Both the position numbers and the translations under genes were made by a program. The notes under the pieces were generated by a model. That model was not told the origin of the DNA, ran no database searches, and saw only the letters and a list, made by a program, of their open reading frames with translations. Of a stretch of DNA of 64,000 nucleotides, positions 10,271-11,342 are shown one piece after another; position 1 is the first letter of the stretch; the number at the start of each line of letters is the position of its first letter. Source of the stretch: an uncultured Verrucomicrobiae bacterium (GTDB taxonomy: Bacteria; Verrucomicrobiota; Verrucomicrobiia; Limisphaerales; UBA11358); NCBI GenBank assembly GCA_963755455.1, contig CAVWJH010000001.1:58861-122860 (forward strand), read 5' to 3'.

Positions 10271-11342
10271 ACCAGGACGCGGAAGGCGCGGCCGAGATGT
10301 TCAGGGTGCGTGAGAGTTTGAAACTGTCGCGTGCGGCCGGCGTTCCATTCAATGGATTTTCCCTCCCAAATCTTTTCCAGAATTTGAGCCAGGAATTTTG
10401 CCTGGCTGCCAAATAATTCCGTTTTCAGCCCGGCATCTTCTCCGGTTTTTTGAATCGCGGAAAAATTGACGTGCGCGGTCAAATCCTGTCCGCCTGCATT
10501 TGCCAAAATGTCGTCGGCAAGATGATGCCGGAAATAGGCGCGGAGCGTGCCGTTTGTGCGCGCGGGCGAAAAGAGTTCGTCGGCGGAAAAGCCGTAATCC
10601 ATCGTCAATAATTTTCCATTTTCAAGAACGCCCGCGGCCTCGCGCCACCAGTTTTCGGCGGCGGGGGAAATTTCGACGGTGTAATCGTCCGGCAAAACAT
10701 CCAAAAGCGAAGATGGCAAATCTGAATTTTGAATTTTGAATTTTCGCCCAGATGAATTTTTCGCCGTCAAGTGCGACGCCCCACTCGAACCATTTTTTGC
10801 TTTGTGCATCCCAGCCAAATCTTTGAACGGGAAAGGCGTCGAGCAGTTCGTTGGAAAAGATGATTCCGGTCAGTTTTGAGTTTTTAGTCTTTAGTTTTAA
10901 GATTTCAAAATCGGGAAGCCAGCGGACGCACGGCGCAAATGGTTTCAACGTTTCGCCCTGCCATTCCCGGCGGCGCGCGGAGGGTTCGATGATGCACGTA
11001 TTCGATTTGCGCGAACAGTTTTGGCCGGTTCAATTGCAACCAGCTCAAAATATCCGCCGCCAGTTTTCCGTCATGCGCGCCGGCCTCGACAATTCGCAAT
11101 TCGCGAATTCGCACTTCTGACATTTCTTCCAGCCATTCCGCAAATTGAAATGCGAGCAGTTCGCCGAAAAGGTTTCCGACGTTGACGCTCGTGTAAAAAT
11201 CGCCGCGCCGCCCGACGTTTTCCTTTTGCGCCTCGTAATAGCCGCAGTCCGGCGCGTAAAGCGCGAGTTCCATGAAGCGCGAAAATGGCAGGACGCCGCG
11301 TTCCGCGATTTCGCGGCGGATGATTTCGGCGGGCGTTTTCAT
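10258..11342 (-). CDS. MidA/NDUFAF7-family SAM-dependent methyltransferase (two apparent frameshifts, one inside a heptamer array)
   Basis: DUF185-type motifs are present: FMELALYAPDCGYY, GDFYTS, IVEAGAHDG, SNELLDAFPV and LTMDYGF. The protein is spread over three frames, with breaks near 10990 and 10723-10744. Confidence 0.75.
10723..10744. repeat. heptanucleotide tandem repeat (TGAATTT)x3 inside midA-like gene
   Basis: Read directly. The coding strand is (AAAATTC)x3, and the frame break of the gene maps here. Confidence 0.85.
10871..10905. repeat. degenerate 7-mer word array inside midA-like gene
   Basis: agttttg agttttt agtcttt agtttta agatttc. It is translated as EILKLKTKNSKL in a variable loop. 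Confidence 0.7.

Follow-up and report, generated by a model that had tools for sequence, protein, structure and literature searches.

A frame break at an (AAAATTC)3 array in a MidA-type methyltransferase gene of an uncultured Verrucomicrobiae bacterium: a probable consensus error at a clade-wide heptamer hot spot

Contig CAVWJH010000001.1 of an uncultured Verrucomicrobiae bacterium carries a midA-type methyltransferase gene whose reading frame changes inside a perfect heptamer array, (AAAATTC)3. A unit of seven nucleotides shifts the frame by one, which is the geometry of slipped-strand ON/OFF switches and also of repeat-number errors in assembly. Does the break belong to the organism or to the deposited sequence? 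Here we examine the array, its gene and the window, that is, the whole stretch of 64,000 nucleotides that was analysed, together with related loci. The observation proved real but incomplete; reading it as a switch is not supported, and the cause is most likely sequence error.

Read through its breaks, the midA product matched PF02636 (Methyltransf_28, MidA/NDUFAF7 family, COG1565) with 186.2 bits against a cut-off of 23.3, over profile positions 1-246 of 249, and it matched the solved structures 4f3n (E = 7.6e-39), 1zkd and 5ztz. This match to the whole domain, end to end and above the curated threshold, places the read-through protein in the MidA/NDUFAF7 family, but the gene itself is broken in the window. 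Motif I (11075-11055, minus strand) reads E-A-G-A-H-D-G, as it does in 100 of 120 relatives (P0121-P0240); the solved homologues have F-G-A-G-T-G (4f3n) and I-G-P-G-R-G (1zkd), and the canonical form is G-x-G-x-G. The G-A-H-D-G form is kept in the clade yet departs from the canon, and SAM binding may be altered clade-wide.

An earlier sequence-only reading had quoted the coding strand at the array as tgg gcg aaaattc aaaattc aaaattc agatttgcc and had placed a change of frame there. Both statements stand: the quoted letters are present on the minus strand, and the frame translations run ...GEKFIWAKIQNSKFRF upstream and ...KFKIQNSDLPSSLLDVLPDDYTVEISPAAENWW downstream. TRF delimited the array at 10723-10744, with period 7, 3.1 copies and 100% match. 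The window holds three perfect heptamer arrays of at least three copies, against 0.0 in 50 dinucleotide-type shuffles, so that (AAAATTC)3 is not a chance feature. The positions of the features are collected in Table 1.

Table 1. Features of midA and of the other frame-broken genes in the window, followed by the heptamer arrays at site 3 of midA in related loci
Feature	Window positions	Strand	Description
midA (MidA-type methyltransferase gene)	11342 to 10258	minus	spread over three frames, not two
midA segment A	10998..11342	minus	ATG 11342 to codon TAC 11000-10998; reads MKTPAEIIRREI...FAQIEY
Heptamer site 1 of midA	11090..11117	minus	CGAATTG-type, 3.9 copies, in frame, encodes SEVRIRELRIVE
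midA frameshift 1	10994..10997	minus	GTGC in place of one codon; +1; outside any repeat
midA segment B	10745..10993	minus	second frame; reads IIEPSARRREWQGETL...GEKFIWA
Heptamer site 2 of midA	10872..10898	minus	AAAACTA/AAGACTA-type, 3.9 copies, in frame, encodes LKLKTKNSKL
Heptamer site 3 of midA, (AAAATTC)3	10724..10744	minus	second frame to third frame, +1
midA segment C	10258..10723	minus	third frame, to stop codon; reads (S)DLPSSLLDVLPDDYTVEISPAAENWW...RVLVQSR
pilT (11395-12487), +1 shift	11767..11770	plus	window TTC TGCC ATG; relatives TTC GCC/GCG ATG or TTT TGC ATG
ligA (NAD-dependent DNA ligase)	1393..3494	minus	four frame changes; Pfam domains split over frames
pyk (pyruvate kinase)	49392..50848	minus	three frames; +1 near 50170 and within 49740-49830
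ubiE (UbiE/MenG-type methyltransferase)	26469..27407	minus	two frames; +1 near 26900-26925
nrdJ (class II ribonucleotide reductase)	56669..59460	plus	three frames; two +1 shifts
Site 3 array, L004 and L005			AGAATTC x5
Site 3 array, L002 and L019			AGAATCC x5
Site 3 array, L003			CGCTTCA x5
Site 3 array, L011			CGAACTC x4 then CCATCTT x3
Site 3 array, L013			GCAGTCA x4 then CCATCTT x4
Site 3 array, L010 and L020			CCATCAG x4
Site 3 array, L015			CCAGACG x3

The same reading had further held that one unit fewer restores the gene. Deletion of 7 nt does join the frames locally, as FIWAKIQNSDLPSSLLDVLPDDY / FIWAKIQNSDLPSS, but the full gene remains broken: it lies in three frames, with a second +1 at 10997-10994, and five units would repair the local frame equally well. 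In alignment with 20 intact relatives, segment A covers their N-terminal third. The second lesion sits 250 nt upstream of the array; here the window has TAC GTGC ATC, against TAC TGC ATC in L004 and TAC GGC ATC in L005. The window measures 109 nt between conserved anchors on either side, one more than the 108 nt of each of the 14 relatives compared, and a related metagenome contig has one letter missing at 10996.

At site 3 the gene would be in frame with 2, 5 or 8 units. The corresponding anchor distance is 88 nt in the window, against 90, 102, 108 and other values in the relatives, every one a multiple of 3. Two units would give a loop of 23 residues, a length found once among 94 relatives; five would give 30 residues, within the usual range of 26-32, and five is the number carried by L002, L003, L004 and L005. 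By its geometry the array is a tandem repeat of a non-triplet unit inside a reading frame. Copy number alone does not toggle between a full-length and a truncated product, because the +1 at frameshift 1 breaks midA at any copy number, and the relatives, the nearest of which is only 86% identical in DNA, do not include both ON and OFF copy numbers.

The relatives of midA were drawn from one genome scan and one metagenome scan and comprise 20 loci (L001-L020) of Verrucomicrobiota from soil, peat and lakes, with protein identities of 55-80%. In all of them save one cut by a contig end, midA is a single open frame, and the best 120 protein matches are all full length (354-419 aa). The closest relative shares 80% identity in protein and 86% in DNA, and because of this distance the native unit number of the source strain cannot be read from the relatives; in the genomes with a 97-98% identical LigA, synteny does not reach midA. 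All three heptamer sites of midA are in frame in 20 of 20 DNA relatives. Most of these carry a heptamer array at site 3, with units that differ among them (Table 1); other heptamers also occur at site 1 (e.g. ATTGCGG x4.6 and GAATTGC x4.9) and at site 2 (AAATCCG x4.6 in L002 and L019). The comparison of unit number between related genomes, which the sequence-only reading had proposed, thus yields units and copy numbers that vary, but no out-of-frame allele.

The concentration of period 7 in this one gene is pronounced. In 163 kb of related loci there are 20 perfect arrays of at least three copies with period 7 and none with any other period from 4 to 12, and 18 of the 20 lie within midA. By TRF, midA has 39 arrays of period 7 in 23.3 kb, and the other sequence has 11 in 203.7 kb; 7 was the commonest tandem-repeat period in the loci sampled. 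The peptides encoded by the perfect arrays of the relatives have a period of seven residues (e.g. KIQNSEFRIQNSELE, ESRIQNPESRIQNP and LHASRFTLHASR), as expected of a 7-nt unit translated in each of the three frames. In the solved homologues the three heptad loops of MidA correspond to gaps or badly aligned stretches. The (AAAATTC)3 array itself is a genuine array, one of three midA heptamer loops found across this soil and peat clade of Verrucomicrobiota, and this hot spot is the interesting residue of the analysis. If confirmed in accurate genomes, it would offer a natural system for studying the origin, uniformity and tolerance of non-triplet repeats inside proteins.

Some arrays of this kind also occur elsewhere. 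In metagenome contigs from peat and soil, the (AGAATTC)5 array of L004 (L004:3606-3642) is 25-40x as deep as its flanks, and (AGAATTC)n is joined to many unrelated flanks; the excess depth and the many flanks therefore indicate a dispersed, STRR-like family, with the same heptamer array present at many loci. Logan contigs end at the heptamer arrays of the relatives. Within the window, (AAATCGT) x3.9 at 8263-8289 precedes the dnaJ start codon (8302) by 13-39 nt, in the position expected of a ribosome-binding site. Site 3 can also hold other inserts: L012 and L014 carry a GC-rich palindrome (CCCTCGCCCCGCAA.GCGGGG.GAGGG) inserted in frame, and L011, whose midA is 97% identical in DNA to that of L014, has a heptamer array in its place. 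Palindromic elements inserted in frame are known, for example, from Rickettsia, and the pattern in L012 and L014 appears to resemble them.

The frame of midA is not the only one broken. Frameshifts were detected through Pfam domains split over frames and through alignment to relatives, which gave at least 12 in the 64-kb window, about one per 5 kb, and 11 of them are +1: two in midA, one in pilT, four in ligA, two in the pyruvate kinase gene, one in ubiE and two in the class II ribonucleotide reductase gene. Related contigs have one letter fewer at 11767 or 11769, at the pilT shift. For ligA, alignment with L021 and L022 placed +1 shifts at 3336, 1725 and 1687, and the fourth change, a net -1/+2, falls inside an 83-nt insertion at 2922-3024. 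The pyruvate kinase domains are distributed over three frames (barrel positions 2-214, barrel positions 213-327, and PK_C), and profile positions 6-164 and 158-233 of ubiE lie in different frames. One nrdJ shift maps to 58346-58353 (AAA CAA G TAT GGC) and the other lies between 58353 and 58840. The shifts are clustered: two in ligA stand 38 nt apart, those in midA 250 nt and those in pyk about 400 nt. With 770 nt between the shifts of midA and pilT, these two genes hold three within 1.05 kb. At the mapped sites of midA, pilT and the three in ligA, the extra base is absent from the relatives. Both ligA and ribonucleotide reductase are normally indispensable.

NuoG, which stands outside the count of 12, appears at 37144-38768 as a pair of open frames, of 343 aa and 189 aa, with most of its molybdopterin domain (profile positions 1-245) unaccounted for; the gap may reflect another frame change or else a deletion. 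Scans of the window for damaged RNA genes, by tRNA and Rfam models, gave three intact tRNAs and no other hit.

Several observations indicate that the frameshifts are not old. Ka/Ks between the window midA and four relatives is 0.23-0.33 overall and 0.20-0.33 across the three segments; in segment C, which lies downstream of both shifts and was taken in its own frame, it is 0.20-0.23, against 0.20-0.26 for intact relatives among themselves. The LigA fragment of the window is 98% identical in protein to P0001 and 97% to P0003, at 90% in DNA. No in-frame stop codon was seen inside any fragment in its own frame. Since Ka/Ks is not raised, LigA is 98% identical, in-frame stops are absent and the related contigs lack the extra letters, the lesions must be recent. 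The window combines two marks of an artefact: many frameshifts in the conserved genes of one sequence, indispensable ones among them, and fragments that are under purifying selection in their own frames with no further damage.

From these patterns in the sequence we infer that the frame changes are consensus errors rather than mutations of the organism. Twelve recent lesions, all but one of the same sign, hit indispensable genes without relaxed selection, and for this reason the out-of-frame unit count at the array would be part of the same technical problem. We therefore favour an insertion-biased consensus error, of sequencing or assembly, as the cause of the break at the array, and put its probability at roughly two in three. 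The sequence-only reading had itself named a repeat-number error in assembly as one possibility; error is indeed the better supported cause, but it would not be peculiar to the repeat, as the whole stretch is rich in +1 indels.

The sequence of events under this explanation may be as follows. The midA arrays would grow, shrink and turn uniform through replication slippage, in variable surface loops of a MidA-type methyltransferase; they would be translated as seven-residue heptads, with selection holding the total length at a multiple of three. The deposited consensus would be rich in insertion-type indel errors clustered in short stretches, midA-pilT being one of them, and the true midA allele would probably be in frame, with two units or with the five more typical of the clade. 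How the extra bases arose is a matter of speculation. They might merge the two alleles of a polymorphic codon, with GTGC standing for GTG/TGC and TGCC for TGC/GCC, and with GT[G/C] in L022 and L021; this idea fits the mapped sites inspected, several of which equally fit extensions of a run by one base (TT to TTT, C to CC, A to AA). The public runs matched related populations only (best 31-mer share 0.08-0.13), and no reads of the source strain were found among them. The findings of broken genes from this window, and probably from the whole assembly, need reads before they are believed.

Against an error at the array itself stands the form of the lesion. The other mapped errors are single bases, whereas the array is perfect at 3.1 copies; for a one-base insertion to produce such an array, the true tract would need an imperfection that matched it exactly. 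The lesion is therefore most simply described as a change of whole units (+7 or -14 nt), the outcome of real slippage. This opens the first alternative, in which three units are true of the organism or its population, as an accidental null or as the OFF state of a midA phase switch. A whole-unit lesion is atypical of the single-base errors of the window, a 7-nt unit necessarily toggles the frame, and the AAGACTC repeat of NeuO is a precedent (PMC3046976). The locus evolves fast, with units and copies that vary between relatives; recent slippage is implied by the perfect uniformity of most of the relatives' arrays, at 3.7-5.4 copies, and L011 and L014 carry different inserts at site 3 despite their near-identical midA. 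Yet an out-of-frame allele is absent from 20 relatives at three sites and the best 120 proteins are full length, a tract of three units is short for frequent slippage, and the array lies in the middle of a gene for a cytoplasmic enzyme, while known switches usually belong to surface or modification genes and lie close to the 5' end. The second midA lesion moreover means that no unit number yields a full-length protein, and the break shares its sign and its 1-kb cluster with lesions that look technical. We consider a real slipped allele possible but unlikely.

The number of lesions suggests a second alternative, gene decay, in which midA and the other broken genes would be pseudogenes of a genome in mass inactivation. 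Several lesions per gene, two to four in those affected, are what dead genes gathering damage would show, and in that respect count against error. The identity of the genes points the other way, with ligA, nrdJ and pyk among those affected, and so does their state: Ka/Ks is not raised, stop codons are absent from the fragments in their own frames, and LigA remains 98% identical in protein to that of an intact relative. A bias of 11 in 12 towards +1 is to be expected of a sequencing chemistry rather than of mutation, and intact copies are present in the relatives, which are free-living bacteria of soil and peat. Decay is accordingly a poor explanation, and we hold it to be very unlikely.

No better placed is the stronger form of the switch, in which midA would be a true contingency gene whose three arrays slip often enough to switch the enzyme and to vary its heptad loops, and the window would hold a natural OFF allele. 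Were it so, it would be the first phase switch driven by a heptamer in any free-living bacterium of soil, and the first in a methyltransferase of the complex-I-assembly type. What survives of the switch first proposed for this locus is the frame geometry of the 7-nt unit and a heptamer locus that evolves fast across the clade. The ON/OFF switching itself finds no support, given the second lesion in the gene, the in-frame state of all relatives, an array of just three units and at least 12 frameshifts in the window, and we regard a contingency gene as highly improbable.

Programmed +1 recoding, by which a ribosome or a four-base decoding tRNA would read through genes functional as written, can practically be dismissed: 11 of 12 shifts do share the +1 sign and none of the six mapped single-base sites requires a homopolymer of more than 3 bases, but those six sites share no slippery or recoding motif (the preceding codons being TAC, TTC, AGC, GTG, TTT and CAA) and are followed by no stop or consistent rare codon, relatives with a 97-98% identical LigA lack the extra bases, and we know of no +1 recoding system at such density in bacteria.

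Other repeats in the window have different forms. Palindromes of octamer arrays, (CCACAGAG)3 - A/T-rich spacer - (CTCTGTGG)3, lie at 2935-3011, 41414-41506 and 60999-61065; one of them falls within the ligA coding region, in a variable loop, and the close relatives L021 and L022 do not have it. A slip by one octamer unit was considered for the ligA shift inside the 83-nt insertion and rejected: removing one CCACAGAG unit meets a stop codon, and the shift therefore lies downstream of the octamer array. A second palindrome family (GCAAAGTC) is found at 37002-37070 and 62430-62490. At 29963-31440 (minus strand), two tandem thymidylate-kinase-family genes stand side by side, each covering the whole profile.

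We found no paper on heptamer arrays in Verrucomicrobiota. The STRR heptamers of heterocystous cyanobacteria are dispersed perfect 7-nt tandem arrays at many genome sites, described mainly as intergenic. The (AGAATTC)n array of L004 is likewise dispersed, on many unrelated flanks; the Verrucomicrobiota arrays differ in being concentrated, in frame, inside one gene.

The simple-sequence contingency loci of Haemophilus and Neisseria include tetranucleotide tracts and heptanucleotide repeats upstream of hmw1A, and resemble midA in that a non-triplet repeat shifts the frame, or the promoter spacing, with its copy number (PMC2651432, PMC8262952, PMC3315296). Their tracts, however, are long, occur in host-adapted bacteria within surface or restriction-modification genes, and show ON/OFF polymorphism between isolates, whereas midA encodes a cytoplasmic enzyme in soil bacteria and is ON in every relative.

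The closest known parallel of the midA array is the coding AAGACTC repeat of NeuO, the O-acetyltransferase of the CUS-3 prophage in E. coli K1, which is present in 2-93 copies and is translated into RLKTQDS heptads (PMC3046976). Only a copy number divisible by three leaves NeuO ON, and this number shifts by slippage; the tract begins two nucleotides past the start codon, and switching at high frequency has been demonstrated (PMC3046976). In the midA relatives, too, a 7-nt coding repeat gives seven-residue heptads that are tolerated in variable number. The midA arrays differ from NeuO in lying mid-gene, three to a gene, with 3 copies here and 3.7-5.4 in the relatives, and in that the relatives are all in frame, whereas NeuO switches at high frequency. 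They share with it the coding of heptads and the arithmetic of the frame, and at site 2 the likeness extends to the letters: the unit AA(A/G)ACT(A/C), with the peptide LKTKNSK, is one base per unit away from the unit of NeuO.
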